A stretch of 64,000 bases of DNA, from IMG/VR virus record IMGVR_UViG_3300027861_002706, positions 53,602-117,601 of that record; one strand, written 5' to 3'. Below the pieces are notes generated by a model. It was not told where the DNA came from. It ran no database searches and saw only the letters and a list, made by a program, of their open reading frames with translations. Of this stretch, positions 1 through 63,197 are shown one piece after another (position 1 is the stretch's first letter; every line of letters starts with the position of its first letter). The DNA is from a virus. Made by a program: the position numbers and the translations under genes.

Positions 1-787
1 TGACTAATAGCTTTTCTTTTATGTTATGGATTGGTACTTCCGCGGACCATGCGGTAGAACTAAGTATAGTCGTATTTCTAGTGGACCCATTTATCTCTAT
101 ACTAGAGATATCTGGAGCTTTGCTACCAGCGATCGTAGTTGTTATACCATTGACCTTTTGATCGTATCTATCTATGCTCCATGAATAATCGAATATGATT
201 GTCTTTGGTTCAAAGAACTGTACCTGAGAAGGGAATCCTCTAGATCCATTCTCCGCTACAGGTATGACTCGCCATAGATATTTATGATATTCGGCATTAA
301 CTAGTTCAATCATATCTATAAGATCTATAGTATATGAGAGCTTTTGCTTTAGTGGCGTTTCGTAGTCTATATCAGATACAACGTTAGATCCTACAACGAG
401 ATTAGTAAACTGCTTCAAGAGAGGATTCGACTTGACCTGCTGGTCAAGTATAAATGGCTCAAAGTTATCATCTAAATTTTCTTTGCCGAGATCTGGAGTT
501 ATCTCAAGTATATAACTAGATGGCATTTCTGCCTCGATAGGAACACCTTCATATCCAGTAAGATCAACTGCTCCAGTGTAGACAACTCCAGTAGTAGTCT
601 CTATCATATCGGCAAATGAACTTTGCCAGTAATATGTTAAGTCGCTATAGGATCTTGTTGCTGAGTTATAGTCGGCTGGAACTTCTGGTCTAGGTAGCAC
701 TTGGCTACCAACGCCAACATTGATGGCACCGAAAGGCTGAGTGAATCCGTCAAAAGGGGCTCCTTCTGGTACTCCGGTATGTGCCAT
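1..787 (-). CDS. Tail/baseplate-associated structural protein, partial (runs off the window edge); possible Ig/FN3-like domains
   Basis: Not in the ORF track. Manual translation from ATG at 787 (MAHTGVPEGAPFDGFTQPFG...) stays open to position 1. Starts 1 nt after the TAG of the 789-2915 gene. Beta-rich segments such as TIAGSKAPDISSIEINGSTRNTTILSSTAWSAEVPI. Confidence 0.8.
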   Translation of the reverse strand, partial: MAHTGVPEGAPFDGFTQPFGAINVGVGSQVLPRPEVPADYNSATRSYSDLTYYWQSSFADMIETTTGVVYTGAVDLTGYEGVPIEAEMPSSYILEITPDLGKENLDDNFEPFILDQQVKSNPLLKQFTNLVVGSNVVSDIDYETPLKQKLSYTIDLIDMIELVNAEYHKYLWRVIPVAENGSRGFPSQVQFFEPKTIIFDYSWSIDRYDQKVNGITTTIAGSKAPDISSIEINGSTRNTTILSSTAWSAEVPIHNIKEKLLV

Positions 788-6794: not shown

Positions 6795-6800
6795 TTGATC

Positions 6801-7235: not shown

Positions 7236-7246
7236 TTATTCCTCTT

Positions 7247-45472: not shown

Positions 45473-47140
45473 CTAAATTTGATCCATTGGATCAATGTCT
45501 GTTTTCTTGATAGTCGATACATTTTCCTCTTTCACAGATTTGGCCACAGGAGGTTTCTCCTCAACCCTATCTTTTATGAAAGATGGTAATCCATTAGACT
45601 TGAAACTACTTGCTAGCTCAGGCACTAGATCCTCAATGCTATCTCTAAGGCTTTCAACACTTCTCGCTGCAACATGAGTCACTGCCTCTCCGAAGCTTTG
45701 GTGATCGGCTACCGATTTCACCTGCGGCTTATGGAGTTGCATTTGCATAGTGACCAGTTGAGAGGCGAGCTGCTTTTTGAATTCCTCAGTAATGGCAGCA
45801 TTCTCATCCATTAAGCAATTGTACTCACTTATCTTAGTGTCGTACAACTGCTTTGCCTTCGCCAGTTCTGCTTCAAGTTCTGCAGTTCTAGACTGACTAT
45901 CTTCTAAAGCCTTTTCCAAGACAACAACTGTCCTATCTAGAGGCTTATCCGTATCATCCGTATTTTTCGCAACATCGGTATCTTTAATCTCGTTCTCTTT
46001 CTTGGTACTCATGATATTTTGAGCATCCTTCCCACCTTCAGGATCATTTAATTCTCCTGATTGTTTATCGGTATTGATTTTTGAATTACTTGTTAATGAA
46101 CTGCCGGCCAGCTCCTTAATTACTTCATGTTTTAGCATATTTTTAATGCTGGCAGCCATCTCCTCTATATTGTAGTTGGCGTTTGTGTCGCCTAGACCAA
46201 GAGACTTAGGCCAATCTAATTTTTTGCTGCGTGACCCATCTTTATCCATATCGAATCCTTCAGGAACAGCAACCCTTACGGCACGCTTTGCGTTATCTTG
46301 CCCATAAGGAATTTCATCTTTATCGTCTGGAGATCTAATCAATTCTGTCACCCTGCCTTCTGAGTCCGCTAGCACTATTGAGCAGACTCCACCAAGAGTA
46401 TCTGCGGTAACAACTTCTACTGTTTGTTCTTTTGATTCTGGAACTATAGCGCTATCAAAATCTGCGCTTAATATTCCTGCGAGTTCATTGGCGGGGTGGT
46501 TCACAAATGAGCATTCCATATATTTCATCTTACCTGTAACAAGATAAGCTCTATATTTTACTCCTTCTAGGTCGTAGACTCTTCCTGGTCTGTGATTACA
46601 GACTTCTTCTTCGTCAGTATCACTTAGCCAATCATGGCCACATATGGAGCAATATGCCTTGTTGCTGCTTTGTCCAGTAGAAACAGTTTTATATCGTCCG
46701 TCTAGTATTTTTTGTTGTGCATCTTTGTCAGAAACAGTTCCGCTTATAACGATATATCCAGATCCCGGATTTGTACCATGATCTGGATTCTTCCAATCGT
46801 TCTTAAATCGATCATCTTCCCATAGCTGTACAAATTTTTGCGAATCTATTCTACCTATCGGTTCAGATTTAGAATCGTGATGCTTCAGGAATGGTTTGTC
46901 ATAACCAGCTGTGCCTCCATTGTCTTTGGAGACCCAAGAAGATGCACCTGCTTTTACTCCACTACCAGGATAAACACGATTATTGAGTAAGTAGCCGGAG
47001 TGAGTTGCTTTAATAGTTACCCTGAAGCTAGGGGCATTAATAGAAGAATATAAATCTTCTAAAATATTGTTAGCGTCAGTATATATATCGGATCTTTCTG
47101 GCATACCAAAGAGATCGGTAAATCGAACTTCTCTGTTCAT
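45473..47140 (-). CDS. Prohead protease with C-terminal scaffold-like coiled coil
   Basis: ATHSGYLLNNRVYP, KPFLKHHD...PIGRI, ILDGRYKTVSTG, CSICG and ECSFVNHPA motifs, plus a helical C-terminus. Confidence 0.85.
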   Translation of the reverse strand: MNREVRFTDLFGMPERSDIYTDANNILEDLYSSINAPSFRVTIKATHSGYLLNNRVYPGSGVKAGASSWVSKDNGGTAGYDKPFLKHHDSKSEPIGRIDSQKFVQLWEDDRFKNDWKNPDHGTNPGSGYIVISGTVSDKDAQQKILDGRYKTVSTGQSSNKAYCSICGHDWLSDTDEEEVCNHRPGRVYDLEGVKYRAYLVTGKMKYMECSFVNHPANELAGILSADFDSAIVPESKEQTVEVVTADTLGGVCSIVLADSEGRVTELIRSPDDKDEIPYGQDNAKRAVRVAVPEGFDMDKDGSRSKKLDWPKSLGLGDTNANYNIEEMAASIKNMLKHEVIKELAGSSLTSNSKINTDKQSGELNDPEGGKDAQNIMSTKKENEIKDTDVAKNTDDTDKPLDRTVVVLEKALEDSQSRTAELEAELAKAKQLYDTKISEYNCLMDENAAITEEFKKQLASQLVTMQMQLHKPQVKSVADHQSFGEAVTHVAARSVESLRDSIEDLVPELASSFKSNGLPSFIKDRVEEKPPVAKSVKEENVSTIKKTDIDPMDQI

Positions 47141-49314: not shown

Positions 49315-51211
49315 CTGATTCCTTTAACATCTTTTTAATCTCTTCGTCGCTAATTTCCATTTTACAAGTCTTGAGTATATTCCTTATCACCTCTTCTGAT
49401 GTTTCTGGCTGATTAAACTTATCAATAGCCGGAATAACCATAGTTTCATCTAGTCCAAACAGCTCAGATTTTTGACTTATTACTATTGGTTCATTATCTG
49501 AGAAGTACCTTTCTCGTAAATCATCAGGAATATCAATTGTATACTGATTAGCAGGTATATCTAACCCACCTACAATATCATCTATGATATTGTCTGTTAT
49601 ATCGTCAGATAAATCAAAGCACTCTTCGAGAGATTGAGCTAATATAGAGTTTAATATCATCTGCATTTCATTCACTCGCCTCACTTGCCATTTGACCTGA
49701 GCCGTATGTACATCCCTCCAGATTTCGACCGAAGCCTTCTTCTGCTCCTTGCTTTCATAGGAATTCAGTTTACTCGCTGTTTTTTCTAATTGATTAAGTA
49801 TAGACTTAAGCATATCATGGAATAGCTTACATTTCATATATAACGGTTTTACAACTGTTACATCCATCATACGTACCCAACGCTCAAGTAATTTACGTAT
49901 TATATCCATAGTCTTATGTTTTATATACATAACAACTGCATAATCGAATCTAGTTCCAGATAAAACTGCGGATGTCTTTCTAGCATATTTAGCAGATATG
50001 TCAACCGCTAATGTTTTTGATATCGCCTTTAAAAATATTATAATCATTTTTATCACTTTTTTATCAAACTTCTGCTTAGCCATTATACGCAATAAACAAC
50101 AGATTTGATCTTTTGTAGCGATATACGCACTAGACTGAGCTACGTTATTAATCAGCATTCTTTGCTCTTTATTATTAAACCTTATAATCGTAGCGGTGTG
50201 ACCACACATCCCAGTGAAATTATTTTTATATGCAGTTAAAAACTCAGTCTTTAAAAAACTAGGTATGGCATCATCTTCTTTAATTGATGGTATCTGATCA
50301 TGAAGATTCATATTTATATTAACTTCACTAGAATACGTAGGATAGTATTTATATACATCAACAGAAGAATTTCTGGATTTTCTAAGACTGATGTAATTTA
50401 CCCATAAGTCATATTTAGGATCGGATGATGCATATATATAATTAATGACATAATCTAAAATATTCTTGTAGTCATTTTCACCCACCTTTTCCATAGCCAA
50501 GGACTCTAAACGATTAAATTGAAACTGCTCAGCTGGAGTCGTGGAAACTGAGCTAGACTCAGATCTTATTCCTCTTATTAGTATCTTGTTTAATACATCT
50601 ATCGCAGAGGCAAAAGCAATAGCAATAACTAATTTCATTGCACCATACGCAGCTCCTTCTGGGTGTTCTGATGGCGGAGATATTTTAAGTATGTCTGGCA
50701 CATTAAATATATCTTGAAATTTATGTATCGCATAATTCAATAGATATACTGAATCGAACATAGCTAAATCATCATCAGATAGCCCAAACAATATTTTATT
50801 TTTATAATTTCGTTGTGTAACTGAGTCTAACCTAAGATTGCCTGTAGTTGACTCCATTATCTTAAACGCATAATTCAATTTAACTTGTTCAAACTTCTTA
50901 ACTGCAGTAAGGAATAAATGAAAACTTATTCTTGCTCCATCTGCTTCTGATGGATCTTTTCTTGCTACAGCGGCTCTGACATCTTGCATAATAGAATCAA
51001 CAGGGACATGTGTCGCCCTACATTTTTTATCTAATAAGTTAAGCAATCTATTAGATAGTTCTATGTTGTCTTTTACTTCAGAAAATATTTCATGGATTTC
51101 TTCTTCGTTGGCATTTTCTTTGTGGATGGGAGGAGCAGGACGTGCTGTATTCTCGTCGAATAGGGTTCTATCCTTTTCAAATTCCCGGGGTTTTTTAGAG
51201 AATATACCCAT
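49298..51211 (-). CDS. Hypothetical helical protein (637 aa) between terminase and portal
   Basis: Long ORF, Lys/Ile-rich and visibly more AT-rich than its neighbours; no motif recognised. Confidence 0.7.
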   Translation of the reverse strand: MGIFSKKPREFEKDRTLFDENTARPAPPIHKENANEEEIHEIFSEVKDNIELSNRLLNLLDKKCRATHVPVDSIMQDVRAAVARKDPSEADGARISFHLFLTAVKKFEQVKLNYAFKIMESTTGNLRLDSVTQRNYKNKILFGLSDDDLAMFDSVYLLNYAIHKFQDIFNVPDILKISPPSEHPEGAAYGAMKLVIAIAFASAIDVLNKILIRGIRSESSSVSTTPAEQFQFNRLESLAMEKVGENDYKNILDYVINYIYASSDPKYDLWVNYISLRKSRNSSVDVYKYYPTYSSEVNINMNLHDQIPSIKEDDAIPSFLKTEFLTAYKNNFTGMCGHTATIIRFNNKEQRMLINNVAQSSAYIATKDQICCLLRIMAKQKFDKKVIKMIIIFLKAISKTLAVDISAKYARKTSAVLSGTRFDYAVVMYIKHKTMDIIRKLLERWVRMMDVTVVKPLYMKCKLFHDMLKSILNQLEKTASKLNSYESKEQKKASVEIWRDVHTAQVKWQVRRVNEMQMILNSILAQSLEECFDLSDDITDNIIDDIVGGLDIPANQYTIDIPDDLRERYFSDNEPIVISQKSELFGLDETMVIPAIDKFNQPETSEEVIRNILKTCKMEISDEEIKKMLKESDGSSR

Positions 51212-53250
51212 CAGATGTTACCTCGACCAAACCGGTTGCCCCTAGGAGTGTTACCGTGATATCTTGTTCTACCTTGAACTGAATCTCCTCTAGATCTATT
51301 AGTAGCCTGCCTCCTAGCGACATACACTCCTATGTCGTTTCCTCCTACTAATGTTTCTTTATCTTCATCTGTCCTTTTCTCTGGCTTTAGATCTTTTTGC
51401 ATTTTCTTACTAAATTTCTTCGCCTCTTCTAAATCTATTTGACGCTCAGTGATATTACTCAACTCAGGGAATGGTGAGTCGTTATCATGGTCACTGCCTA
51501 CACCAATAGAATAGGCAATATCCATAACGTGTTCTATCTTTTTTATATCACTAAACTCTAAAATATGACCCATAATACATAGCATCCATGCGGTAACAGT
51601 GTGCTCATAGTCTTGAGAATACGTAGGTACGCCGCTTGGACTATACTTAACTATCTTGAATGCTCTTATCTGTTGGACGATACCTATGTTGGCGAAGGGT
51701 ATCTCACTAGGTACGATCCTTGTGGTCGTATCTTCATCTACAGGCATTAATACCTGCTTCATCTCCATTGTTCGACATGACGCATCTACCATAAACTGTT
51801 TTACTGGTTTCTTGATAGGCATACCGCTGACTGGATCGGTTATCTCTATATTAGAGTTCATAGTCATGGGCTTGACACGCTCTTTATAGTTGGTGTGTTC
51901 GTTAGGATAATCCATGTCATATTTCCACATCATCTCAACTTGGACGTGTCCATAGCCAGCATCTACATAGATGTATGCAGTTTGATTACCCCATACTTTG
52001 TCAAGCTCCATTATTTTCTTAATAGCTTCTATCTGTTGAAATTCCTGAGTTCGTATTATATGTTTGTCTACTGTTTTATACATGAGTCGACCATCTACGT
52101 TCATGGCCTCAGTAACAACTATGTGCGTACCTGTAGTCTTACCCCAGTCTACTCCTATAACATACTTAGACTCTGCGTGCGGGATGCAATCTTCATAAGT
52201 GTAGTCAGCCAGGCACGCGTTAACGTCCTCGCTTCTAAACACACCCTCAGCTTCGTCACCAAACTCAGCAAGAAACTCTCGTTCGTATCCAGTCTTTGAG
52301 TAGTTCTGCTTAAACATATGATCTACTTTTGGAGTCCAACTAGGAGATTCCGCAGATATAAACCAGAACTCCTTAAAGCCTTGACTCTTGTCACAACACC
52401 AGTTATATAGTTTTTTACGTATTCCAGTAGGCGTAGATGAGACGATGAGTTCGCAAGTCGGGTGAGAAGCCATTATCGCCATGATCACTTCGATGTCGCT
52501 GTCATTGATATAATCAACTTCGTCCATGATAATAAAATCTGCGTCCTGACCACGAACCTTATCGGATTTTGCGCCCGAATGTGCACCAGAAGACCAGCCT
52601 CGAATAACTCCACCTGAGCTGAATTCAATCATTTGTGGGTTGAGGACATTCCTCTTAATCATGCCTGGCATATTTAGTGTAGAGGATCTGCCTATAAAAT
52701 CACGCATAGTATCAAATATCTTTGCAACTTGGGGCTGATATGGCGCAAGCACAAGTATTTCAAACTGCCTATCAGTAAGGCCGCCGTTAGTAAACAATTT
52801 CCAAAGAGCAAGAACACTCATCGCTTCAGTTTTGCCGACACGACGTCCTGCGCGAATGGCTTTAAACTGAGATGAACATCGCATGACCTCTTTCTGATAC
52901 CATCTAGCCTCCCAGTCAAATTCAAACTTAGCCCAAGCAACTGGATCTTGTAGCATTTTATAGTTCTCGAACTCTTCGTCAGATAAGCCTTGATTTTTCA
53001 TCTTCTTAGCTAGCTGTCGATAATCGCCGTCACAGGCAGGTATAAATGGTTCGGAAGTAAAGCCCTTGCTATGCATATCTTGATAGTAGTCTATACACTT
53101 TCTGCAGAAATGACAATCTCGACCAAGCATAGGCTTATAGTCGGATCCCTTATAGTCATCCATTGGCCTATATTTTTCACCAAAATCAATGCCTATTTTA
53201 ATGGGCTTTTCGCCCTCAATCCTAATCTCATTCTTCTTTTTATCAGGCAT
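51211..53250 (-). CDS. terL: Terminase large subunit
   Basis: Walker A (AIRAGRRVGKT), Walker B (FIIMDEVD), motif III (VSSTPTG) and RNase H nuclease start (VIGVDWGK). Confidence 0.95.
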   Translation of the reverse strand: MPDKKKNEIRIEGEKPIKIGIDFGEKYRPMDDYKGSDYKPMLGRDCHFCRKCIDYYQDMHSKGFTSEPFIPACDGDYRQLAKKMKNQGLSDEEFENYKMLQDPVAWAKFEFDWEARWYQKEVMRCSSQFKAIRAGRRVGKTEAMSVLALWKLFTNGGLTDRQFEILVLAPYQPQVAKIFDTMRDFIGRSSTLNMPGMIKRNVLNPQMIEFSSGGVIRGWSSGAHSGAKSDKVRGQDADFIIMDEVDYINDSDIEVIMAIMASHPTCELIVSSTPTGIRKKLYNWCCDKSQGFKEFWFISAESPSWTPKVDHMFKQNYSKTGYEREFLAEFGDEAEGVFRSEDVNACLADYTYEDCIPHAESKYVIGVDWGKTTGTHIVVTEAMNVDGRLMYKTVDKHIIRTQEFQQIEAIKKIMELDKVWGNQTAYIYVDAGYGHVQVEMMWKYDMDYPNEHTNYKERVKPMTMNSNIEITDPVSGMPIKKPVKQFMVDASCRTMEMKQVLMPVDEDTTTRIVPSEIPFANIGIVQQIRAFKIVKYSPSGVPTYSQDYEHTVTAWMLCIMGHILEFSDIKKIEHVMDIAYSIGVGSDHDNDSPFPELSNITERQIDLEEAKKFSKKMQKDLKPEKRTDEDKETLVGGNDIGVYVARRQATNRSRGDSVQGRTRYHGNTPRGNRFGRGNI

Positions 53251-53953
53251 GCATGAACGTCGCTTCGTTGCCCATCGCTGCTCTAGTATTCATTTGTGAG
53301 TTATGTATGGCGGCCATGGCAGTTTGCCTTTGTGTAAAACTAGCCCTAGTGTCAGCGAATCCTTCGCCAAGATCATACTCTATGCCCTCTTTGATATTGC
53401 TTCTCTCATATGAGTATGAGTGTAACCCCTGAATACCTGCACTCAACGCAGAAAAACCCATACCAAAGAGATCATTTATTAGCCATGCTGAGGATAGTAT
53501 TCTTAATCCCCCTCCAATTCCCATCCTAATCGCAGCTCCGCTTAGTTTACCCGCCTGCTCACCAGCAAATTTCCCAGCGCTCCCCTTCGTGTATTCTCTG
53601 ATGAATTGTTCTTCTGGCGCTTGATATAATCCAAAGCTCCTGAGTGAGCCCCATCTCCCCTTAGGCTTCCAGCTAGGGAGAGTGCTGGCTCTACCTCCTA
53701 GGAAACTGTCAAGAGCAGTTGTTTCAGCGCCTTGTTGGAACATGTAAGGTGTTACTCCGGGGATCATCCCCATTAGAGGTCTACCTCCTGTACCCATACC
53801 TATTCTACCCATGAGGCCTGCGCCAAGACTTTCTCCAGCAGTGGCTATGGCGACATCCGCAATCATATTGCCTATACCAAAGTTCTCATGGTCAGAGGCC
53901 GTCGATATTAGTTGAAACCCATCAGAGCTTATAGTCGGATTATATCCCTGCAT
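53243..53953 (-). CDS. Gly/Ala-rich membrane-like virion (ejection-type) protein (236 aa)
   Basis: Hydrophobic helix GIGGGLRILSSAWLINDLFGMGFSALSAG; C-terminus FTQRQTAMAAIHNSQMNTRAAMGNEATFMH. Confidence 0.5.
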   Translation of the reverse strand: MQGYNPTISSDGFQLISTASDHENFGIGNMIADVAIATAGESLGAGLMGRIGMGTGGRPLMGMIPGVTPYMFQQGAETTALDSFLGGRASTLPSWKPKGRWGSLRSFGLYQAPEEQFIREYTKGSAGKFAGEQAGKLSGAAIRMGIGGGLRILSSAWLINDLFGMGFSALSAGIQGLHSYSYERSNIKEGIEYDLGEGFADTRASFTQRQTAMAAIHNSQMNTRAAMGNEATFMHA

Positions 53954-53954
53954 A

Positions 53955-55088
53955 TTACATATTCAATCTATGCGCATGAAGCGTTGCGTTATAGTTTAAG
54001 TTGCCAAAGCTTCTCCCTCTGACCCTAGGTGCAGGAGACGATACATTTTTCAGATTTCCTCTTTTCACGGATGATATCCCTGCCGCTGCTCCGGCACCGA
54101 CTCCAGCTAGGAATCCTCCTGCCATTGATGGTCCCATAAATTTCATTAAATCGTCACCCTTGCCCCACAAAGAGCCACGCCCTATTAGCCCGCCTGCAAG
54201 CATGAATGGCAGCCCTACAACAGTGGAAGCAAGACCTCCCGCTCCCTCAGAGCCAAGCCATCCTTTTGTCCACTTAGGCATTCCGCCAAGCACACTAAAC
54301 TTCTGTGCATCTCGCATTCCATATGACTGTCTAAGCATTTTTTTGTTAGAGGTCAGTAATCTCTGCTGCTTGGCCATCTCCCTAATGCTTAGTCTATCCT
54401 TTTCTACCCCCTCTCGATATAATTGTTTCGTTCTGCGTGACATTCTGCCGGCAGGTCCCGGTAGATTTAAACCAGCATTGAATCCAGTAGGCGTTTGTGC
54501 GGTAGTGGGTGTCCTAGACCTAGCCCACGTTTTTAGTTTTGTCTTTTGTGAACCGATTCCAGTTCCGAGAGAAGCTTTTGCCTCTAGGCTCGCAACTGCC
54601 TTAGCTGCAGCAGACTTGCTACTATACTTGGCATTAGCTAAGATGCCTGCACGGCCTATAGATGTTGCCATTTTGACACCAGAGACAACACCTACACCAA
54701 CCTTAGCTGCGCTTAACGCAAAGTTCCCTAGACCAGACATCTGATGCCCAAATGTGTCCTGGAATGAACTGATTCCGGCGTTTATTGTAGCTCCAGTCAA
54801 ACCAATCCCAACAGCACCTACTAGCTGATCTGATATCGTCATACCATGGCTTAACCCAAGGTCATGACCAACTTTTAGCCCTTCCATCTCCTTCGCTAGA
54901 TTCTTTGCTACCGCATCTCTTCCATACCTTGCTGTCATCCAACTAACATCAGAGGGAGGGAGGGGTGGCCCGTGAGAAACAAGGGGGTGTGGCCCGTAAG
55001 GAACTCCAGCTCCTCCACTACCTCCAGCTCCTCTACGCCCTTTGAAGATCCTCTTAAATATATCTTTGAGTATATTGCCTCTTGCCAT
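53955..55088 (-). CDS. Basic Gly-rich membrane-like virion protein (377 aa)
   Basis: Several Gly/Ala hydrophobic segments and many Lys/Arg residues. Confidence 0.5.
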   Translation of the reverse strand: MARGNILKDIFKRIFKGRRGAGGSGGAGVPYGPHPLVSHGPPLPPSDVSWMTARYGRDAVAKNLAKEMEGLKVGHDLGLSHGMTISDQLVGAVGIGLTGATINAGISSFQDTFGHQMSGLGNFALSAAKVGVGVVSGVKMATSIGRAGILANAKYSSKSAAAKAVASLEAKASLGTGIGSQKTKLKTWARSRTPTTAQTPTGFNAGLNLPGPAGRMSRRTKQLYREGVEKDRLSIREMAKQQRLLTSNKKMLRQSYGMRDAQKFSVLGGMPKWTKGWLGSEGAGGLASTVVGLPFMLAGGLIGRGSLWGKGDDLMKFMGPSMAGGFLAGVGAGAAAGISSVKRGNLKNVSSPAPRVRGRSFGNLNYNATLHAHRLNM

Positions 55089-55102
55089 TATTAATTACCT
55101 AA

Positions 55103-55678
55103 CTAGAACGGTCCAAAATTATTGCCGGATCTGATAGCATTTACAGCTGCTAGTCCGCCATAGCCTACACCAAACATCTTCGCCGCTCCACCAGATCTGA
55201 CCGCAGCTGCCGTTATCCCAGCATGTGCTCCAAATGAAGCTCCTGCGCCTATCGCCCGGCTTACAAAATTATCTTCTCCAAGAGCCATAGGAGCTATTCC
55301 AAATGCTGCTACCGATCCAGCGGCTATTGATCTAGTCGTTGCTCTGGACCTATTTCCTCTTTCGTCGATAAAACCACCCAGGACATTAGGCTGGCCTTCT
55401 TCCCCGGGTGTTACTTTCATCTTTTTGCCCGCGAAGTACTGAGAGAGAGACATACGCTGCTCTTCCCCATAGTGCGAAGCTCCTGATCTCGTAGTCCTCG
55501 TGTCCCTCGTTACTAACTCTTTAATAGCAGATACATTACGAACAATATCGGGATCTGTTGCTCCGTTTGCCTGACCTGCATGGTGCAACTTTACTGGATT
55601 CATATCCGATATAAGATCGGTTAAAAAGTTGCCTAACTTCTTACCAACATAGTTATCTATTATTCCGGGCATACCCAT
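55103..55678 (-). CDS. Gly/Ala-rich membrane-like virion protein (about 191 aa)
   Basis: C-terminal hydrophobic Gly/Ala helices. Start set at ATG 55678 (AAGGA Shine-Dalgarno, no overlap); the ORF track uses 55741. Confidence 0.5.
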   Translation of the reverse strand: MGMPGIIDNYVGKKLGNFLTDLISDMNPVKLHHAGQANGATDPDIVRNVSAIKELVTRDTRTTRSGASHYGEEQRMSLSQYFAGKKMKVTPGEEGQPNVLGGFIDERGNRSRATTRSIAAGSVAAFGIAPMALGEDNFVSRAIGAGASFGAHAGITAAAVRSGGAAKMFGVGYGGLAAVNAIRSGNNFGPF

Positions 55679-55691
55679 AAGGCTATCCTTA

Positions 55692-58600
55692 CTACCAGTT
55701 TCCTTTTCTTCTCGATCCATTTGCGTGTGTGGTAGGTCCATTATATATCATAGACCTATTACTATGCATCGATGCATTCCTGCTTCCTTGGTCTCTTATT
55801 CCAGATCCGCTAGTATATTTCAATTGATTAGTAGAATTGACTTTTTTACCTTGCCTCCACAAGGCTTTTTTTATCAAGGTGCCATAATCTCCAAAACTCT
55901 TGATGGCGGAGTAATCTGGACCGGGCAGCATTCCCGAAGGCACTCCACTTCCTTGACCAACAGCATTTTGCATATATTTACTTTGAGTAGCTCTGCCAAT
56001 AGCATCTGACGCGGCCTGATACATGGAATAGTTTTTAATCTCATGGCCTTGTCTCCTAAGATCTTTCATCATAGCTTTTACGGCACGAGAATCTTCTACT
56101 ACCTTACTCAGATTGACATTAATCTTAAAGTATTTTACTTTAGTCGGATCATTTCTCGCGGCGTAACCAATTAAAGCATATGGCTGTTTTAATGCATATG
56201 CATAAAAGTTAGCCTGAGAAACGTGCGCCTTCTTAGGGTACTTAAGTTCTTTAAGCGCATCAAAATCTGCAACAGATTTTATTTCTAAAGGAACACCAGA
56301 TTTTAGGACTAGATCGATATGACCCATTATATCTAGTTCAGAATCATGGACGACATGCTCGCTGGCCTGAGCGATACCTCTTCTCAAGTACTCCGATTCT
56401 ATTACCTTGTGTACGAGGGTACCCTTCTCGGAGGATTTTGTGTAGTCATCAAAAGAAGATCTTCCCAAGAGTATATCTTTTAGCCTATCTCCGCGATAGC
56501 CCAGCATAGACGATCTAATCGTATTACTACCATACCCGCTACCATATTTTATCTCGGCTATAGCCTGAGAAGCAAAGTAGTCATTTCCAGAGCCAAAGGA
56601 GTGTAGAAGCGTATCTCCTGAAGGAGACATTCCCTCCAGGGTGTTATACTTGCTCCCTGGATGTTTTATATCACCATTTCTATTACCCAATAATACTAAT
56701 CCTGAAAGAGTGAATATTCCGGCAGCTAAAACACCTCCCTTTCTCTTTATGCCACCCATAGTCTCACCGAACTGACTTCTGGCGATATCTCCTATCGTCT
56801 CTCCTGTGGCTCTACTTGCCGTAGAGTGTGGTTCGGGGATATATCGTGGGAACCCGCCAGACCAGCGTTCTGTATCTCCTGCTAGAATAATCTGGTCTAA
56901 TGTATTTTCGGCGCTTCTTAGCTTGGAGTCATTTACCATATTCCTGATAAACTCATGCATCTCGGTTTGCGCACCATGCGGATTTGATAAATGTTTATTA
57001 AACATATCAAATATGTAAGACATCTGTTGGTCAATGTCGATCGAAGCGTCATGCGCTATTTGCTTTACAAACTTGTCATCTAGCGCTATCACATCTGATA
57101 TTAACCCATGTAAGCTATCTCCACCTTTATTCGTGATATACTCAGCTTTACTGATTCCAGGATGATGTGTTGTGATATACGCATCTGTTGCGAACATCAG
57201 GCTTCGGCCAATTCCGCCAGCCGCGGTTAGAGAGTTTCCGCCCTTTAGCTCAAACCCGGTAGCATAGTTCTGTAAAAATTTTAGCGTATCACGTTCCAGG
57301 CTGCCGCTCTTTGTCCATTTCAAATCACTCTCATAGGAGGGACCCATTATGCTTGATCCGCCCCCTGCTCCGAATATTCTGTCTAGCGTTTTTTCGGCAA
57401 TATCGAGATGTCTTATTCCAGCTGTACTTCTTCTTATTACATCTAAGCTTGTCTGACCAGAAGATCTGTCTAGCTCTGTAAGATCTCTAACCATAGTCGC
57501 AGCTTGCTTAACTATCTTCTCTTCATCGGTACTTGCTGTTCGTATGTTCTCCGAGGGGAAAGCCCTCTCTAAAAAATCCCCCTGGATTTTGTTAAGATCT
57601 TGACTAGTATAGTCTCTAACATTCTTAGCAAGCGAGTGTAGCCCGCCCCTATTCCCCCTGCTGCCGTGGTTTAGGTACTGAGTCGTCTCACCAGTCTCTA
57701 TACCCTGACGTATTAGACTCTTGATCTCATCTCTGTTATGCACGCCTTTTGCCAGATTCTCCCGTATCTGCTCCTGATTTAGATTACTTACATTGAAGTT
57801 CTCATCTCTAACCATCATCCAAAACTGCACATCCTTCATTTTGTCAGAAGCATCGGCTAGATGTATAACATCATTCGCCATTGTGCCTGAAGAAAAAGGA
57901 TCATGATAACCAGTACGATCAATACCAAATACAGTTTTGAATCTTATCGCGTACTCTCCGCCTTTTTGACGGATCGCCGCATCAGTATGACTTGTTAATG
58001 TATCGATATGTCTGGCGTATGCACCCATATCAAACTTCATGTTCCAAGCAACTGCAGCCTTTTTCCCTGTTCGATTGTTTAGACTCTCTGCCTCAGCTAA
58101 AAACCGGTCTATCATATCCGTGCTAGACTCTACGCTAACTTGACTTACCTTAGCTCCATGCCTTTCCATGAATAATTGTTTACCAAACCCTATATTTAAT
58201 GGTGAACCTATCTTTGCTACTGCTACTGCATAGGCGCCAGAAGGGGGATTATTCATCAGATTGGCTGTAATTTTTCTGAGTACTTCTGGATCTCTTACCT
58301 GAAATTTACCACGCTGTGCCTCTATCTCCTCCCTGACTGCCTTGGCTATATCTGATGTATCCTTAAATCCCCCCCCCTCTGCTTCCTTATAGAATTGGGC
58401 TAACTGTTCATTTCCAATTACTTTATGTGGCAGAACTTCCCCATCAGGGGCAGCAGGTCTCTCGTATTCTATTTTTATTTTAGTTGAGTCTATGCCAGTG
58501 CCAGCCAGATCTAGTTTGTCTAAGTGAATATTTGTTTTCTGATCTGTCGAGGTTCTATTACCTGCCCCATCTATGCTTATGATCTCTGATGCTGACTGTG

Positions 58601-60182
58601 TTATCTGGCCTGGGCGATTTCTCTCAGCCGGTGTATCACCCCTAGTGCTGCCGCTATCTCGAATCTCATGTATGACACCCGAACTGGTTATTGCATGAGT
58701 CTTGCTTCCTCCAGGAAGCTTCGTGGTTTCAGTGTCAAGATGCATTTCAGTACTAAATGGAGATCTAACAGTCGTACCGGGGGAATATTTAGATTCAGCA
58801 GGAAATATAGTACCAACAGGAGAGCCAGGAGTAGCGGAGGTAGGAGCAGCAGGAGTAGGAATAGCACCAGCAGCGGCGGGAGTAGGAGCAGGAGTAGGAA
58901 TAGCACCAGCGGGAGCAGCGGGAGTAGGAATAGCACCAGCAGCGGCGGGAGTAGGAGCAGGAGTAGGAATAGCACCAGCGGGAGCAGCGGGAGTGGGAAT
59001 AGCAGTAGCGGGAGCGGATGGAGGCACCCCTAAAGCAGCACTACGGTTAGCCTTAAATGCGGCATCTGCTTCTGCCCTAGTAACTTCCTCTCCTACGGGG
59101 AAGTAGAGGTCAGAGTCGGACTTTCCAGAAATGTAATCATATTTGATTCGAGAAAGCTTTGATAGCTGCTCATCTCCATACTCGGTCACCTGAATATATG
59201 AAGGCCTACTACCTTTTACTACTTGGCCTCCTTCTACTATGCGAGATCGAGGATCTCCTTTGGTCTCATTATTGAAGGGTAAATTTGCAGGCGCATCATC
59301 AATTACCATGGCTACATTTTTATGCTTACGTATCTCTTCTACTTTTCTTGAAGCCCCTTCTTCTGTTCCTCCGTATATTTTCTGAGTAAAGAGATCCTCA
59401 AGCCCATGATGCTTTAAGTTTGCCTCTGTCATCTCCTGCATGTGTGGCGAGCGACTAGTATATAAATTTACCTCGAATCCCTTACTCTTCCAGAATTCTA
59501 GATTATGAACAAGACCTTTATCTACGGGAATCTCACTAAGCCCAGGAGTCCCCTTCATCTCACGAGTATAGTCTGCAAGAGCATCTACAATATTGCCGGG
59601 GTGTCTCTTCTGAGCCGCTTCGAATACTTCGTCACCTGCAGAAGAGAATAATGTGCTATCTAGATCTACGAATATTTTGGGCTTATTCCTACTTTTCCAT
59701 CTTTGAAAACCTTGTTTTATCTGAGGAAAATTTTCATTAATAATTGCGGCCCCTACCGGGAGGCTACCCCCGGGTATTACCGCAGCAGCTGCCACATATG
59801 CTGCGGCCTTTTTCCAGCCCTTCAGTTTTTTCATCTTTCTAATCGCGGCTTGGACAGCACTCTCCGGCCTCTGAGGGGAAGCAGCGGGAGTAGGAATAGC
59901 ACCAGCAGTAGCAGTAGTAGTAGGAGTACGAGCAGGAGCGGGAGTGTGAATAGCAGGAGCACGAGCAGGAGAGGGAGTGTGAATAGCAGGAGCACGAGCA
60001 GGAGAGGGAGTGTGAGGTATGGGCCGTTTCGTAGAGGAGGGATTTGAGCCCGAGAGGATTGGCTTCCTTGCTGCCGTTGCCTCTGCCGCTGCCTTTTCCG
60101 CTGCTCTCTTTTCTGCTGCTAGCTTTGCTGCTGCCTTTGCTGCTGGAGTATTACGGTTTCCTCTGGGATTTATCTTTGCCAT
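55692..60182 (-). CDS. Multidomain protein: HAD phosphatase + DEDDh 3'-5' exonuclease-like + PD-(D/E)XK (RecB/Cas4-like) nuclease (1496 aa)
   Basis: HAD motifs IFVDLDSTL / LYTSR / VIDDAP; DnaQ-like motifs HLDTETT / VAWNMKFD / AHDASID; PD-(D/E)XK motifs KGTLVHKVIE / GHIDLVLKSGVPLEIKS / HVSQANFY. Confidence 0.75.
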   Translation of the reverse strand: MAKINPRGNRNTPAAKAAAKLAAEKRAAEKAAAEATAARKPILSGSNPSSTKRPIPHTPSPARAPAIHTPSPARAPAIHTPAPARTPTTTATAGAIPTPAASPQRPESAVQAAIRKMKKLKGWKKAAAYVAAAAVIPGGSLPVGAAIINENFPQIKQGFQRWKSRNKPKIFVDLDSTLFSSAGDEVFEAAQKRHPGNIVDALADYTREMKGTPGLSEIPVDKGLVHNLEFWKSKGFEVNLYTSRSPHMQEMTEANLKHHGLEDLFTQKIYGGTEEGASRKVEEIRKHKNVAMVIDDAPANLPFNNETKGDPRSRIVEGGQVVKGSRPSYIQVTEYGDEQLSKLSRIKYDYISGKSDSDLYFPVGEEVTRAEADAAFKANRSAALGVPPSAPATAIPTPAAPAGAIPTPAPTPAAAGAIPTPAAPAGAIPTPAPTPAAAGAIPTPAAPTSATPGSPVGTIFPAESKYSPGTTVRSPFSTEMHLDTETTKLPGGSKTHAITSSGVIHEIRDSGSTRGDTPAERNRPGQITQSASEIISIDGAGNRTSTDQKTNIHLDKLDLAGTGIDSTKIKIEYERPAAPDGEVLPHKVIGNEQLAQFYKEAEGGGFKDTSDIAKAVREEIEAQRGKFQVRDPEVLRKITANLMNNPPSGAYAVAVAKIGSPLNIGFGKQLFMERHGAKVSQVSVESSTDMIDRFLAEAESLNNRTGKKAAVAWNMKFDMGAYARHIDTLTSHTDAAIRQKGGEYAIRFKTVFGIDRTGYHDPFSSGTMANDVIHLADASDKMKDVQFWMMVRDENFNVSNLNQEQIRENLAKGVHNRDEIKSLIRQGIETGETTQYLNHGSRGNRGGLHSLAKNVRDYTSQDLNKIQGDFLERAFPSENIRTASTDEEKIVKQAATMVRDLTELDRSSGQTSLDVIRRSTAGIRHLDIAEKTLDRIFGAGGGSSIMGPSYESDLKWTKSGSLERDTLKFLQNYATGFELKGGNSLTAAGGIGRSLMFATDAYITTHHPGISKAEYITNKGGDSLHGLISDVIALDDKFVKQIAHDASIDIDQQMSYIFDMFNKHLSNPHGAQTEMHEFIRNMVNDSKLRSAENTLDQIILAGDTERWSGGFPRYIPEPHSTASRATGETIGDIARSQFGETMGGIKRKGGVLAAGIFTLSGLVLLGNRNGDIKHPGSKYNTLEGMSPSGDTLLHSFGSGNDYFASQAIAEIKYGSGYGSNTIRSSMLGYRGDRLKDILLGRSSFDDYTKSSEKGTLVHKVIESEYLRRGIAQASEHVVHDSELDIMGHIDLVLKSGVPLEIKSVADFDALKELKYPKKAHVSQANFYAYALKQPYALIGYAARNDPTKVKYFKINVNLSKVVEDSRAVKAMMKDLRRQGHEIKNYSMYQAASDAIGRATQSKYMQNAVGQGSGVPSGMLPGPDYSAIKSFGDYGTLIKKALWRQGKKVNSTNQLKYTSGSGIRDQGSRNASMHSNRSMIYNGPTTHANGSRRKGNW
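58845..59010. repeat. Pro/Ala/Thr tandem repeat (69-nt unit, AIPTPAAPAGAIPTPAPTPAAAG, about 2.3 copies)
   Basis: Repeated ggagtaggaatagcaccagc blocks between the HAD and DEDDh domains. Confidence 0.9.
59920..60020. repeat. 33-nt tandem repeat (HTPSPARAPAI, about 3 copies)
   Basis: gggagtgtgaatagcaggagcacgagcaggaga repeated in the N-terminal low-complexity region. Confidence 0.85.
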
Positions 60183-60946
60183 TATTCACCAAACACTTCT
60201 GGCGCAATGGTCTTAGAATCGTTATGCATCTCAATCTCTGTAGCTGTAATATTGCCGTCAGAATCTTGAGAAGCCATCCGTATCTTCTTGGCCTTTTCCA
60301 TGAGATTAGCTGCGACTTTTGAAGGATCAGCATATCCTTTGGAAGCTGCATCTGCTTTGGACTTCCTCGTAGTGAGAAGCTCACGCATAAGCCTTAGTTT
60401 TGTTTTAACCAGTTTTTCGTAGAATTCGGCGGCCTTGGAACTCTCATTGCTATAGAAAGGCTGGCCTGCTGGGCTATACCCGCTTATAACTCTTCGTTCT
60501 ATCTTTGGGTCCATGGCAAGTTGCATGGCGGCTCTTGCCTCTAACGTCATCTGGAATACTATCTGGTCTACTAGCATCCTGTCATATGCGGAAGAAGGAT
60601 CTTCTGGATTTATGCCTGCCGCCTCGCTGAACTGATCTGTCCACTGTCTTATCTGGTAGGACTCTACAGGACAATCACCTCCAAATGGACGATCTATCTT
60701 ATTGCGTACCAGAGGGCATTTCTCAAAGTATGGGCACTGCTCATCTCTACATACCATGGGGCCTGCCATGGGAGCAAAGCCAAACTTAACAGATTCTGTA
60801 TATCTGGCAAGATTTCCTCTTTGGACTTCTGTGAGAGCAGTTTCTTCCTTGCCAGTCAGGCTATTGTCATTTATTACTACTTCAGGTAAGTTCTCGGCGT
60901 TTTCAGGAACAGTAACCCCAGGACCGAAGAGCTCGTTTGAATTCAT
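60182..60946 (-). CDS. Cys-motif protein (254 aa); possible terminase small subunit
   Basis: C-x4-C-x5-C-x14-C cluster (CRDEQCPYFEKCP...DCPVE) followed by helices. The function is inferred from position only. Confidence 0.45.
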   Translation of the reverse strand: MNSNELFGPGVTVPENAENLPEVVINDNSLTGKEETALTEVQRGNLARYTESVKFGFAPMAGPMVCRDEQCPYFEKCPLVRNKIDRPFGGDCPVESYQIRQWTDQFSEAAGINPEDPSSAYDRMLVDQIVFQMTLEARAAMQLAMDPKIERRVISGYSPAGQPFYSNESSKAAEFYEKLVKTKLRLMRELLTTRKSKADAASKGYADPSKVAANLMEKAKKIRMASQDSDGNITATEIEMHNDSKTIAPEVFGE

Positions 60947-61162: not shown

Positions 61163-61200
61163 AAAAAATAGAGCCCCACTGCTATTACACAATGGGGCTC
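61163..61200 (-). terminator. Rho-independent terminator after nrdJ
   Basis: Minus strand: gagcccca...tggggctc stem followed by tatttttt. Confidence 0.85.
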
Positions 61201-61223
61201 CAAAAGTGAGGATATGTGACATG

Positions 61224-63197
61224 CTATGTTAGCTCGCACCGGTCTCCGGTGCATGCCCATGTCTTGGCGCCCTCGGTAGTATCTTCAGTTTCGTACATAC
61301 TGAGATAACGATAATCTATCTCTGGTAAGTTTGCAAGCATTTTATTATACTCTTCTTCAGTGCATTCTTCGTATGGCGCCTGTTCATACCTGCCACCATC
61401 ATATGGTAAGAATGATACACCATTTATTATGTCCCAGTTTTTATATACCCAATTGCCTACTTCAAACCACTCATTATCTTTTACATAAACAGTGCAAGAC
61501 GCATTATGCTCACACCAGTTCTCTTGTATCTTCTTGTATTGCTCCAGCTGCTCCATGGCAGTCATGTCTCCTCGTAGGACAGAACCATCAGGAGATTTTA
61601 CAGGGAAGGATACAACCCAGGTGATAACATCGTCTGCAGACCAGCTTTTCCCTTCCTTATATATAGCGCATGCTTCTGCGTCACCACCCTCAGCTTTCGC
61701 CCAGTCTTCTTTCCTTTGACCGGTCTCAGGAGACATGGGGACCTTTTGATCCTGTAGCATCCTGAATAATGGGTCAGTAGCAGATATACGATATCTGCGT
61801 CTATAGTAGCTTGCATACCTCGTGTGAATACCAGAAGAAGAGTCGACTAATTGGGATACAGTTCCGGAGGGTTTTACACAAGTTATAGCAGCAGGCATAC
61901 TTACGCCCAGTAGTTCAGACGCATGTTTGGCTATTTTAATTGCTTTCCTTTTCATTGCGCGCAGCGCGTCGGCGCTTAATAGTGTTTTGTTATCCATGAT
62001 GCCTGTCAACGAGACTCCAAGAAGTCGTTCCTCCTCACAGTTCTCTTTCCACTTATCGTTCAAATACGGGAAATCGGTGAAGCAGGACTGTATCACACCT
62101 ATCCATACGGCGGTCTCTACCTTTTTAAACAGGGTATCCAGGTCATCCTCGGCTCGTACCACGACCTCGGACAGATTACAGAACTCCTGGTGGCGTAAGC
62201 TTATCTCTGCACACGGGTTAGTCCCTGAAATCAAGTAGCCTTGTCTGCGTTTTGGAGATCTTGTCCTAACAGATTGAACATTAAATATACCCCGTTCCCC
62301 CGTCCCAGAGGATGCTAATGTACTCCACTCCTTGAGGAAGTCAGTAGCACTGGGCTTCTCTAGATACACAGCACTGTTATTAGCCATTGCACGTCTCAGT
62401 GGAAAGGGCCACACCTTAGCACTAGCCATTTCTTTGTCAGATAAGTCAGATAAACTAATTTGACTCGATCTCCGTACACCTCCCACAACAACAATCTCTG
62501 CTATTTGGTTCAGTATGTCATGACACTCCAGAGAGGTCAGTTTACGCCCCTGCGCATTTTGGAATATCTCACGCATGAATGCATGAAGCTGTACGAGGGG
62601 TTCGGGTCCAGAGGACCTACCACCCATTGTATAGAGACGAGATCCTTTAGGTCTTATGTTTGTATAGTCCATGTCGACGTCGTGTCCTTCATAGAGGGAG
62701 TCGACGAGAAGTTTAACAGATTTAGTCCATCCGCCGCGAGAGTCCTTAATTGTATGTTGTTTTGTATATGCACCGTCGCGGAAGGTGCCTACCACTGGGA
62801 GCTTTTCTATATGTTTAGATTCAACAGAGAAGCCATACCCTGTACCACACATTAGTATGTATAGCGCTTCTGAGAAGGCTATTGGGTCATCAATGACCTG
62901 GAACGAGCAGTTATACATGCAGGTATTGTCTTTTTCCGCCGCGGGGCCTGCAGCCCAGAGTGATCTCATCGATGGCATCACCTCGAACCCCAGTATAGAT
63001 GAATGAATCTTTTCGTAGGTCTTAAGCGGAACCCTGTCCCCCATGTGTTTACGTATGAAATTTACGTACCTGTCTGTGGTTTCACTCCATGTTTCCCTGC
63101 GGTTCTCCTCGTCTCTCCACCTCGAGTATGTGCGCATGTATACGAATTCCGCCGCGTCGTTTGAGAAGCCTGTGTGTAGTTCGTCCTTAGTAAGCAT
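61224..63197 (-). CDS. nrdJ: Class II (adenosylcobalamin-dependent) ribonucleotide reductase, monomeric RTPR type
   Basis: TNPCAEI catalytic loop, TCVKPSGT, GGVRRSSQISLSD, and a C-terminal CTGDRCEL redox pair. No class I tyrosine pair or beta subunit nearby. Confidence 0.93.
   Translation of the reverse strand: MLTKDELHTGFSNDAAEFVYMRTYSRWRDEENRRETWSETTDRYVNFIRKHMGDRVPLKTYEKIHSSILGFEVMPSMRSLWAAGPAAEKDNTCMYNCSFQVIDDPIAFSEALYILMCGTGYGFSVESKHIEKLPVVGTFRDGAYTKQHTIKDSRGGWTKSVKLLVDSLYEGHDVDMDYTNIRPKGSRLYTMGGRSSGPEPLVQLHAFMREIFQNAQGRKLTSLECHDILNQIAEIVVVGGVRRSSQISLSDLSDKEMASAKVWPFPLRRAMANNSAVYLEKPSATDFLKEWSTLASSGTGERGIFNVQSVRTRSPKRRQGYLISGTNPCAEISLRHQEFCNLSEVVVRAEDDLDTLFKKVETAVWIGVIQSCFTDFPYLNDKWKENCEEERLLGVSLTGIMDNKTLLSADALRAMKRKAIKIAKHASELLGVSMPAAITCVKPSGTVSQLVDSSSGIHTRYASYYRRRYRISATDPLFRMLQDQKVPMSPETGQRKEDWAKAEGGDAEACAIYKEGKSWSADDVITWVVSFPVKSPDGSVLRGDMTAMEQLEQYKKIQENWCEHNASCTVYVKDNEWFEVGNWVYKNWDIINGVSFLPYDGGRYEQAPYEECTEEEYNKMLANLPEIDYRYLSMYETEDTTEGAKTWACTGDRCELT

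Follow-up and report, generated by a model that had tools for sequence, protein, structure and literature searches.

The enzyme folds at issue here are well known, and multidomain effectors delivered with the virion have been described as well (PMC5512222). DEDDh exonucleases—such as E. coli Exonuclease I, the epsilon subunit of DNA polymerase III (Pol III epsilon), RNase T, TREX1, and Cas2-DEDDh—share an RNase H-like core and the motifs DxE, NxxxD, and HxxxxD; a second fold, with the motifs E, D, ExK, and QxxxY, is common to the RecB-like PD-(D/E)xK 5'-3' nucleases, among them Cas4 (SSO0001), lambda exonuclease, RecE, MGME1, and the nuclease domain of Dna2; and small viral HAD phosphatases, including T5 dNMPase, the phosphatase domain of T4 polynucleotide kinase (PNK), and class B acid phosphatases, have DxDxT, T, K, and DD motifs in common. 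Here we describe an open reading frame (ORF), hereafter X, in which predicted domains of all three kinds are joined in one protein of 1,496 amino acids (aa) that contains no cysteine. X lies at 55692-60182 on the minus strand of a 64,000-nucleotide (nt) stretch of viral DNA, which we call the window and whose numbering we use throughout; the window is the final 64 kb of a 117.6-kb IMG/VR virus record (IMGVR_UViG_3300027861_002706, here G000) that is 91% complete.

With the polyvalent proteins (Iyer et al. 2017, PMC5512222) and the internal proteins of phage T4, X shares the concept of a multidomain, possibly particle-delivered effector that comes from a plastic region and acts at entry. Pfam detected no MuF or other hallmark domain of polyvalent proteins (ART, methylase, Zincin, and others) in X or in the homologues scanned, and the delivery of X is a proposal; the text of PMC5512222 mentions no DnaQ, RecB, or Cas4 domain. 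In the sources that we searched, the architecture of X, the expansion of its DnaQ core, its cysteine-free nuclease subfamily with an attached helix, and the alternation of that subfamily between giant and cassette proteins appear to be undescribed. We propose, at a probability of about 0.5, that X is a late-made, particle-associated effector that degrades exposed DNA at entry—a reading drawn from its operon position, its avoidance of cysteine, the swapping of the island in which it lies, and two links to the virion of Bacillus phage 0305phi8-36.

Architecture and conservation of X

A sequence-only reading of this DNA had described a single polypeptide combining a HAD phosphatase, a split DEDDh exonuclease, and a RecB/Cas4-like nuclease. 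The translation bears this out: it runs through all 1,496 aa without a stop, and every motif is found where that reading had placed it—the HAD motifs DLDST at aa 173 (nt ~59666), YTSR at aa 241, and IDDAP at aa 294 (nt ~59303); ExoI DTETT at aa 483 (nt 58736), ExoII WNMKFD at aa 713 (nt 58046), and ExoIII HDASID at aa 1044 (nt 57053); the hydrophobic GVLAAGIF... at aa 1150; and the nuclease motifs GTLVH at aa 1254, GHID at aa 1287, EIK at aa 1300, and QANFY at aa 1323. The unusually wide spacing of the Exo motifs (230 aa between ExoI and ExoII, 330 aa between ExoII and ExoIII), the Ala/Lys-rich N-terminus, and the lack of the cysteines that hold the iron-sulfur (Fe-S) cluster of Cas4 are likewise as described.

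From the N-terminus, X comprises an unconserved region that is Ala/Lys-rich and then Pro-rich (aa 1-125; 59808-60182), a first hydrophobic segment that is not conserved among homologues (aa 126-148; 59739-59807; Kyte-Doolittle 1.87), the HAD-type phosphatase domain, an optional accessory (aa 165-330; 59193-59690), and a Pro/Thr/Ala linker (aa 395-470; 58773-59000). The predicted 3'-5' exonuclease of DEDDh type and DnaQ fold follows (aa 475-1110; 56853-58760), and after it a conserved Gly/Ala/Ser-rich hydrophobic helix of low predicted local distance difference test score (pLDDT) (aa 1148-1168; 56679-56741; Kyte-Doolittle 1.65). The most conserved stretch of the protein (SPSGD.LLHSFGSG...LGYRGDRL...; aa 1169-1250; 56433-56678), partly predicted to be disordered, leads into the PD-(D/E)xK nuclease core, which is of Cas4/lambda-exo/RecE/MGME1 type and lacks an Fe-S cluster (aa 1251-1380; 56043-56432). 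X ends in a basic tail (aa 1381-1496; 55695-56042), predicted to be disordered, that has conserved motifs and the invariant residues S1490 and R1491. Near-perfect tandem DNA repeats occur within X, one of 69 nt in 2.3 copies (97%) at 58843-59004 and one of 33 nt in 3.0 copies (95%) at 59918-60015; they encode Pro/Thr/Ala linkers and suggest recent changes in length.

A word-indexed search returned 15 homologues of 967-1,934 aa. Two come from other assemblies and are nearly identical to X (P0002 from JGI, full length at 96% identity, and P0003 from ENA, 98% over the shared part), and the order HAD, exonuclease, helix, nuclease is seen in six further long homologues. The sequence-only reading had worried that the ORF might be a misassembled chimera; the near-identical copies in other assemblies rule this out, and the wider suspicion of an artefact, whether chimera or decayed inactive fusion, is extremely improbable given that the architecture recurs in independent assemblies and in 13 viral contigs, that the catalytic residues are all invariant, and that the reading frame is intact.

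The short forms (967-989 aa) begin at the exonuclease, whereas the long forms add the HAD domain and variable N-termini; therefore the conserved core unit is, on sequence comparison, the predicted exonuclease, helix, and nuclease (601-1,000 aa in short forms), and the HAD phosphatase is a putative lineage-specific add-on. An exhaustive profile search extended the family to 192 proteins, with distant members of 833-1,190 aa that have the full architecture. A syntenic 601-aa orthologue (L014) matches RNase_H_2 at 25 bits (cut-off 22), DNA_pol_B_exo1 at 24.3 bits (cut-off 23), and, weakly, PDDEXK_1; another member (P0037) joins a domain matching RNase_T (24.4 bits, cut-off 24), and named 'DNA polymerase exonuclease subunit', to a Cas4-like domain. 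A third (P0028) has a DUF4406/nucleoside 2-deoxyribosyltransferase-like domain where the HAD domain would be, which suggests that the N-terminal accessory acts on nucleotides.

Conservation of the catalytic residues, on which the earlier prediction hinged, is clear in alignments of 14, 22, and 39 sequences: the DEDDh pentad D483, E485, D718, H1044, and D1049 and the PD-(D/E)xK residues E1275, D1290, E1300, K1302, and Q1323 are invariant at 15-40% identity. Among 14 sequences of ~38% mean identity, D483, E485, N714, D718, H1044, A1046, and D1049 do not vary; with 22 sequences, down to 15-17% identity, the invariant positions of the 681-aa exonuclease region come down to D483, E485, L635, N714, D718, G982, H1044, and D1049. 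The 39-sequence C-terminal alignment keeps G1254, E1275, G1287, D1290, P1298, E1300, K1302, Q1323, N1325, and Y1340 without exception, and Y1327 nearly so. Overall conservation is uneven: between X variants the helix-linker region and the nuclease are 61-80% identical and the exonuclease and HAD domains 20-35%, and the stretch at aa 1169-1250 reaches 62-80% against 20-33% in the exonuclease region. A prohead-protease or autoproteolysis site in the SPSGD..HSFGSG stretch was considered and dropped, as the candidate residues are not invariant.

The triple fusion, which the sequence-only reading did not recognise, is indeed absent from Pfam, PDB sequences, 50,697 cultured-phage records, and GTDB genomes. 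Neither X nor a 24-kb region had a match in the cultured-phage records by tblastn or megablast, GTDB genomes held no relative, and phmmer and profile searches of PDB sequences gave only low-complexity ribosomal-protein noise. A literature search for phage fusions of DEDDh and Cas4 domains, ejection-protein nucleases, and tape-measure nucleases found nothing relevant.

The catalytic domains

The enzymatic identity of the exonuclease and of the C-terminal nuclease can be assigned with high confidence. For the former, an AlphaFold2 model of aa 470-1150 (pLDDT 75.8; predicted template modelling score 0.80) was compared with known structures. Pfam has no match for this domain, and Foldseek found nothing significant for the model in the PDB (RNase T at E 0.2-0.5); in an exhaustive VIA-align search, all 50 matches listed carry a DnaQ/RNase H-like exonuclease fold. 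They include Exonuclease I (1fxx; Z 12.2, 187 residues aligned, model 7..600) and Pol III epsilon (1j53; Z 10.9, root-mean-square deviation 3.0 Å, 172/174 residues, model 9..594), and 3'hExo, TREX1, RNase T, and Cas2-DEDDh are also among the matches listed. The three distant Exo motifs, whose convergence in one active site had been in doubt, are therefore predicted to belong to one DnaQ core. ExoI (D483-x-E485; 58728-58736) lies on strand 1 of the model, ExoII (N714-x3-D718; 58029-58043) in a strand that a helix follows, and ExoIII (H1044-x4-D1049; 57036-57053) at the start of model helix 577-596; the motif residues named are invariant.

We therefore describe this domain as a predicted 3'-5' exonuclease of DEDDh type. 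Two large insertions, at aa ~561-705 and ~791-1040, break up its DnaQ core and account for ~400 extra residues; the second consists mostly of helices. The domain resembles the DEDDh enzymes named above at Z 9.7-12.2 over 164-192 residues; unlike them, it has a core of ~175 residues spread over ~600 by insertions of ~145 and ~250 aa without a recognised fold, and in X it is joined to a hydrophobic helix and a further nuclease. That a DnaQ fold apparently tolerates ~400 inserted residues while keeping only its catalytic pentad is a point that stands whatever the function of X.

The C-terminal domain is resolved more sharply. In an AlphaFold2 model of aa 1140-1496 the nuclease core has pLDDT >90, and Foldseek matches it at probability 1.0 to Cas4 SSO0001 (4ic1; 1.3e-7), lambda exonuclease (3slp; 5e-6), MGME1 (1e-5), RecE (1.8e-5), and LHK-Exo; PHROG 1706 matches the domain at E 1.4e-13. 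Fold and motifs (E, D, ExK, QxxxY) agree with the RecB/Cas4-like call made from the sequence. Having no cysteine, however, X cannot bind the Fe-S cluster of Cas4, and since the four Fe-S cysteines are absent we call the domain a Cas4/lambda-exo-like PD-(D/E)xK nuclease, not Cas4. It differs from Cas4 further in that a conserved hydrophobic helix and an FGSG motif precede it and in that no CRISPR-cas genes lie beside it (the neighbours of X are a ribonucleotide reductase (RNR) gene, a gp112-like gene, genes for Gly/Ala-rich proteins, and terL); any connection with the trimming of CRISPR prespacers would be an analogy of activities.

The helix itself (aa 1148-1168) is a candidate membrane-inserting segment. 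G1150, G1161, L1164, N1167, and G1170 are invariant in this region, and most of the distant relatives examined have a similar Gly/Ala/Ser-rich helix 50-150 aa ahead of the nuclease, often then followed by an FGSG motif, although in several of them its hydrophobicity is weak. Likewise independent of what X does is the existence of an Fe-S-free, cysteine-free Cas4-like nuclease subfamily that is recurrently coupled to a hydrophobic helix and that moves, as set out below, between a giant protein of the tail module and a cassette in the packaging module.

The HAD call is also supported and is the weakest of the three; on sequence grounds we consider it probable. Motifs I (D173-x-D175-x-T177), II (T242), III (K280), and IV (D295) are invariant in the seven HAD-bearing long forms, and every Pfam match falls below its gathering score: Hydrolase matches at E 1.6e-3 (19.3 bits against 26.4), and Acid_phosphat_B appears below cut-off in 3/7 HAD-bearing members (best E 7e-4). 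PHROG 415 (polynucleotide kinase) matches the region at E 7e-4, and the nearest named ESM-Atlas clusters are all viral HADs (such as T5 dNMPase, HAD_PNKP, and Acid_phosphat_B; scores 0.90-0.91). The motifs are those of small viral HADs; unlike those proteins, this domain is fused to nucleases and has sub-threshold profile matches only.

One alternative is that X stays unpackaged in the infected cell as a late, membrane-tethered enzyme. It would break host DNA down to nucleotides or nucleosides, whether to shut off the host or to economise on nucleotides and phosphate, much as T5 pairs host-DNA degradation with a dNMPase. Two exonucleases of opposite predicted polarity beside a nucleotide-type HAD domain would suit this role, as would the presence of Phage_T5_dNMPase among the nearest named HAD clusters and the deoxyribosyltransferase-like nucleotide enzyme that takes the place of the HAD domain in one relative. 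The surroundings of the gene, to which we now turn, bear on this alternative in both directions.

X in the late operon

The class II RNR gene (61224-63197) lies near X, as a nucleotide-economy role might have it, but the two are parted by a strong intrinsic terminator (61169-61202, minus strand; 14-bp stem with seven G-C pairs and a T-run) that closes the RNR unit. A gap of 277 nt precedes p254 (60182-60946, minus strand), the first gene of the operon, and gaps of this length recur in two related contigs (277 and 274 nt). The operon then runs p254, X, p212, p377, p236, TerL (51211-53250), p637, portal (47140-49314), with genes that abut or overlap from p254 on: p254 and X share one base of their start and stop codons, and p236 and TerL overlap by eight. 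Thirteen viral contigs keep this arrangement, even where TerL identity is as low as 42-49%. As the second gene, X lies inside a closely packed late operon of structural and packaging genes, which opens behind the strong terminator and continues, with coupled coding, into terL and portal. The sequence-only reading had placed X among virion-like genes in general, which needs correcting: X belongs to a cassette flanked by terL and by a gp112-like gene that may be small-terminase-like, just downstream of the RNR terminator.

The terminator and the co-orientation and codon coupling of X with packaging genes speak against the intracellular degradation of host DNA, which is normally an early function. 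Nor would that role explain why cysteine is absent, why the cassette has its other members, why it is swapped as a whole, or why relatives have the nuclease within a virion protein; we judge this reading unlikely.

p254, a Cys-motif protein (CRDEQCP...GGDCP), is a homologue of gp112 of 0305phi8-36 (hidden Markov model (HMM) E 4.5e-33), and its first place in the operon is conserved. Its nearest named ESM-Atlas clusters are Terminase_4/6 (scores 0.82-0.85), which is a lead only towards a small-terminase-like function.

A swappable, cysteine-free cassette

Three genes follow X on the same strand: p212 (55103-55741), p377 (53955-55088), and p236 (53243-53953), the last homologous to gp115 of 0305phi8-36 (HMM E 5.9e-9). 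Their products are 26-27% Gly+Ala, contain no cysteine, and have conserved C-terminal peptides. As annotated, p212 starts at 55741, which gives a 50-nt overlap with X; eight homologues indicate that the true start is probably the ATG at ~55678, 13 nt past the X stop. The C-terminal peptides are conserved despite divergent bodies—...AVNAIRSG(D/N)NFGPF in p212, ...RSFSNI.YNATLH.HRMN in p377, and ...TQRQTAMAAIHNSQMNTRAAMGNEATFMH in p236—and could be targeting or docking signals.

X, p212, p377, and most of p236 make up a hypervariable island of 6.7 kb (53496-60180, minus strand). In DNA comparisons with three related contigs (L002, L003, and L005), identity is 98-99% in the flank that reaches to the X start codon and 87-91% beyond the other border, from 53496 on; inside the island only patches of 70-76% identity align, and its upstream border is exactly the X start codon. 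Protein identity in the same contigs is 41-44% for X, 51-53% for p212, 33-36% for p377, and 53-54% for p236, against 97-100% for RNR, p254, TerL, and portal. From these comparisons the island is apparently replaced as a unit between otherwise near-identical phages, a pattern that suggests an arms race against factors of the host or of rival phages.

The avoidance of cysteine is equally a property of the whole cassette. X and all its close homologues have none, where ~8 would be expected in X at the window mean of 0.53%; cysteine is also absent from p212, p377, p236, and two proteins of the tail module, g1540 and g1885. The pattern holds in divergent cassettes, and 111/161 proteins from two protein searches, nearly all of them with the X-type nuclease domain, are cysteine-free.

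Variability on this scale bears on a second alternative, that X serves DNA maturation, by trimming, debranching, or resecting replicated DNA for the terminase, or is a recombination or replication enzyme, including a proofreading subunit for a polymerase that was not found. X does lie between a possibly small-terminase-like gene and terL; lambda-exo and RecE relatives function in recombination; and the 91%-complete record yielded neither a polymerase of family A, B, or C nor another DnaQ domain. For the polymerases this refers to the Pfam families DNA_pol_A, DNA_pol_B, and DNA_pol3_alpha over the 117.6 kb of G000, so that a polymerase may lie in the missing ~9%, be too divergent, or be absent. 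A housekeeping enzyme, however, is not expected at 41-44% identity where TerL and portal stand at 97-100%, and a dedicated Fe-S Cas4-type exonuclease is already encoded in the record outside the window (L035; G000:C1:7477-8433), directly after a primase-helicase (G000 5004-7496). This stand-alone Cas4-family protein has the usual four cysteines (one N-terminal, and CxxCx5C at the C-terminus) and 23% identity to the X nuclease; therefore the ordinary role of a replication or recombination nuclease is already filled. DNA maturation also gives no role to the helix, the cysteine-free composition, or the membrane-like partners. We find it quite improbable, and the proofreading variant we judged unlikely from hypervariability and gene context.

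The same features can be read as the marks of an exclusion complex. X and the three Gly/Ala-rich proteins could form an envelope machine for superinfection exclusion or competitor killing that destroys incoming DNA at the membrane or in the periplasm; the hydrophobic helix, an avoidance of cysteine that is typical of exported proteins, the membrane-like partners, and allelic replacement of the kind that phage-phage conflict predicts are all compatible with it. On the other side, X has no signal peptide, and exclusion genes are usually early or lysogenic and not found amid packaging genes. The comparison with cultured phage 0305phi8-36, below, weighs further against such a complex, which we regard as improbable.

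Links to virion proteins of 0305phi8-36

The 0305phi8-36 lineage is related to the source phage through TerL, sheath, tube, gp112, and gp115, and it provides two links between the cassette and the virion. The first concerns the nuclease. The same nuclease subfamily occurs in giant proteins of 2,000-3,800 aa whose genes are preceded by those for sheath, tube, and chaperone-like proteins and followed by those for a second giant and a hub-like protein that bears a lysin. These giants are homologous on both sides of the nuclease to g1540 of the window (21097-25719, minus strand), so that the nuclease is an insertion of ~176 aa at one site, between 'S.PG' and 'DR..LADVAP'; g1540 is itself a cysteine-free homologue of gp145 of 0305phi8-36 and lacks the insertion. 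A single-sequence scan of the viral contigs with giant P0072 found nothing, whereas an alignment-based scan found giant loci (L015-L027), and neither g1540 nor g1885 matched PDB sequences. Some giants (P0071 and P0133) contain inteins with LAGLIDADG domains.

gp145 (EF583821.1 46786-52578; L036) has 1,930 aa and no cysteine, and is annotated 'identified as virion protein by mass spectrometry'. Its gene is flanked by those of the tail chaperonins and of gp146, the putative tape measure. In a two-sequence comparison, aa 1222-1307 of X match aa 1058-1148 of gp145 (31% identity, E 1.6e-7); gp145 retains the E, D, DxK, and QxxxY residues and has an extra loop of ~70 aa, its nuclease segment covering aa ~1045-1290. 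gp145 and the metagenomic giants thus resemble X in nuclease subfamily, in keeping the catalytic residues, and in lacking cysteine; they differ in carrying the nuclease inside a giant tail-module protein, as an internal insertion and without DEDDh or HAD domains, whereas in the source phage it sits in X, upstream of terL. The distribution is of an either/or kind: the near-complete genomes G000 (91%) and G006 (93%) have only the X copy, and G001 (100%) and G004 (95%) only that of the giant. The comparative genomics of the lineage (PMC2147016), in which 55 virion proteins of 0305phi8-36 were found by mass spectrometry (MS), does not discuss a nuclease domain in gp145; it does report a staphylococcal-nuclease domain on the hub protein of a related prophage, a precedent for virion-borne nucleases in this lineage. 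A cultured phage whose MS-verified virion protein holds an apparently intact predicted nuclease domain offers a tractable entry point for laboratory work.

The second link is one of synteny. In 0305phi8-36 the slot between gp112 (p254 here) and gp115 (p236 here), upstream of terL, encodes gp113 and gp114—proteins that are cysteine-free, 25-30% Gly+Ala, and MS-identified as virion components; gp116 is MS-identified too. Virion proteins in this slot, together with a nuclease domain in a tail-module virion protein, also count against the exclusion complex discussed above.

Proposed role

The sequence-only reading had suggested a packaged, injected enzyme for DNA-end processing, host-DNA degradation, or anti-defence; the late operon, the cysteine-free cassette, the nuclease link to gp145, and the virion proteins in the syntenic slot lend this indirect support. 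In the particle-associated reading that we prefer, X would be a late product that enters the particle along with the other cassette proteins; as infection begins, it would pass into the cell envelope or the cytoplasm. The helix may tether X at the membrane near the site of DNA entry, where the two nucleases would digest exposed linear DNA from its 3' and 5' ends; possible targets are the host chromosome, competing elements, and fragments generated by defence systems. The HAD domain might dephosphorylate the released deoxynucleoside monophosphates or remove blocking 3'-phosphates. The phage would need some means of sparing its own DNA, perhaps through modification or protected ends; it does carry a large sugar-modification operon.

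Several considerations weigh against particle delivery of X. Its links to virions are indirect, being comparisons of domains and synteny, and no cultured phage among the 50,697 records carries it. The gp145 link covers only the ~130-aa nuclease core, not the exonuclease or HAD domain; that of p212 and p377 to gp113 and gp114 is positional and compositional only (profiles of p212 and p377 gave no significant match to gp113 or gp114); and gp115, the sole proven homologue of a cassette protein, is not annotated as MS-detected. Mechanically, a well-folded 640-aa exonuclease must unfold, or travel in the head, for ejection; a membrane-spanning helix would place the two nucleases on opposite sides; and the phage genome must somehow escape a co-delivered dual exonuclease. 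The helix is moreover only moderately hydrophobic (1.65 in X and 0.9-1.4 in many relatives), avoidance of cysteine and late co-transcription are also compatible with exported or periplasmic proteins, and the HAD assignment rests on sub-threshold profile matches.

A broader and more tentative proposal, which we consider possible though rather doubtful, extends delivery to the lineage. Marine and other uncultured myophages related to 0305phi8-36 would deliver an active Fe-S-free nuclease of Cas4/lambda-exo type either in a giant tail-lumen protein of gp145 type or as the C-terminus of a cassette protein. The cassette form, with its expanded DEDDh exonuclease and nucleotide phosphatase, would be ejected as part of a cysteine-free, swappable 'ejectosome' that includes three glycine-zipper-like partners, and would destroy host or rival DNA or disarm DNA-based defences before phage gene expression. 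Injection of X, if it occurs, would be a rare instance of a phage bringing preformed DNA-degrading enzymes into its host; it would also open up a new class of pre-expression effectors of host takeover or anti-defence, and would explain why exchange of the cassette resembles that of a serotype locus.

The source virus and a second variable gene

The source virus is an uncultured, marine-type tailed phage. Its record has the hallmarks of a myovirus—sheath (29289-30845), major head protein (43066-44514), portal, TerL, and class II RNR—and ends shortly past RNR. TerL is 25-33% identical to that of cultured phages, the nearest being Moorella phage MTATph1 and Bacillus phage 0305phi8-36 and its relatives. 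Between TerL and portal, p637 (49298-51211) is a second variable gene, at 64-65% identity against the 97-100% of TerL and portal; its product has strongly hydrophobic segments and, unlike the cassette proteins, is not cysteine-free, with seven cysteines.

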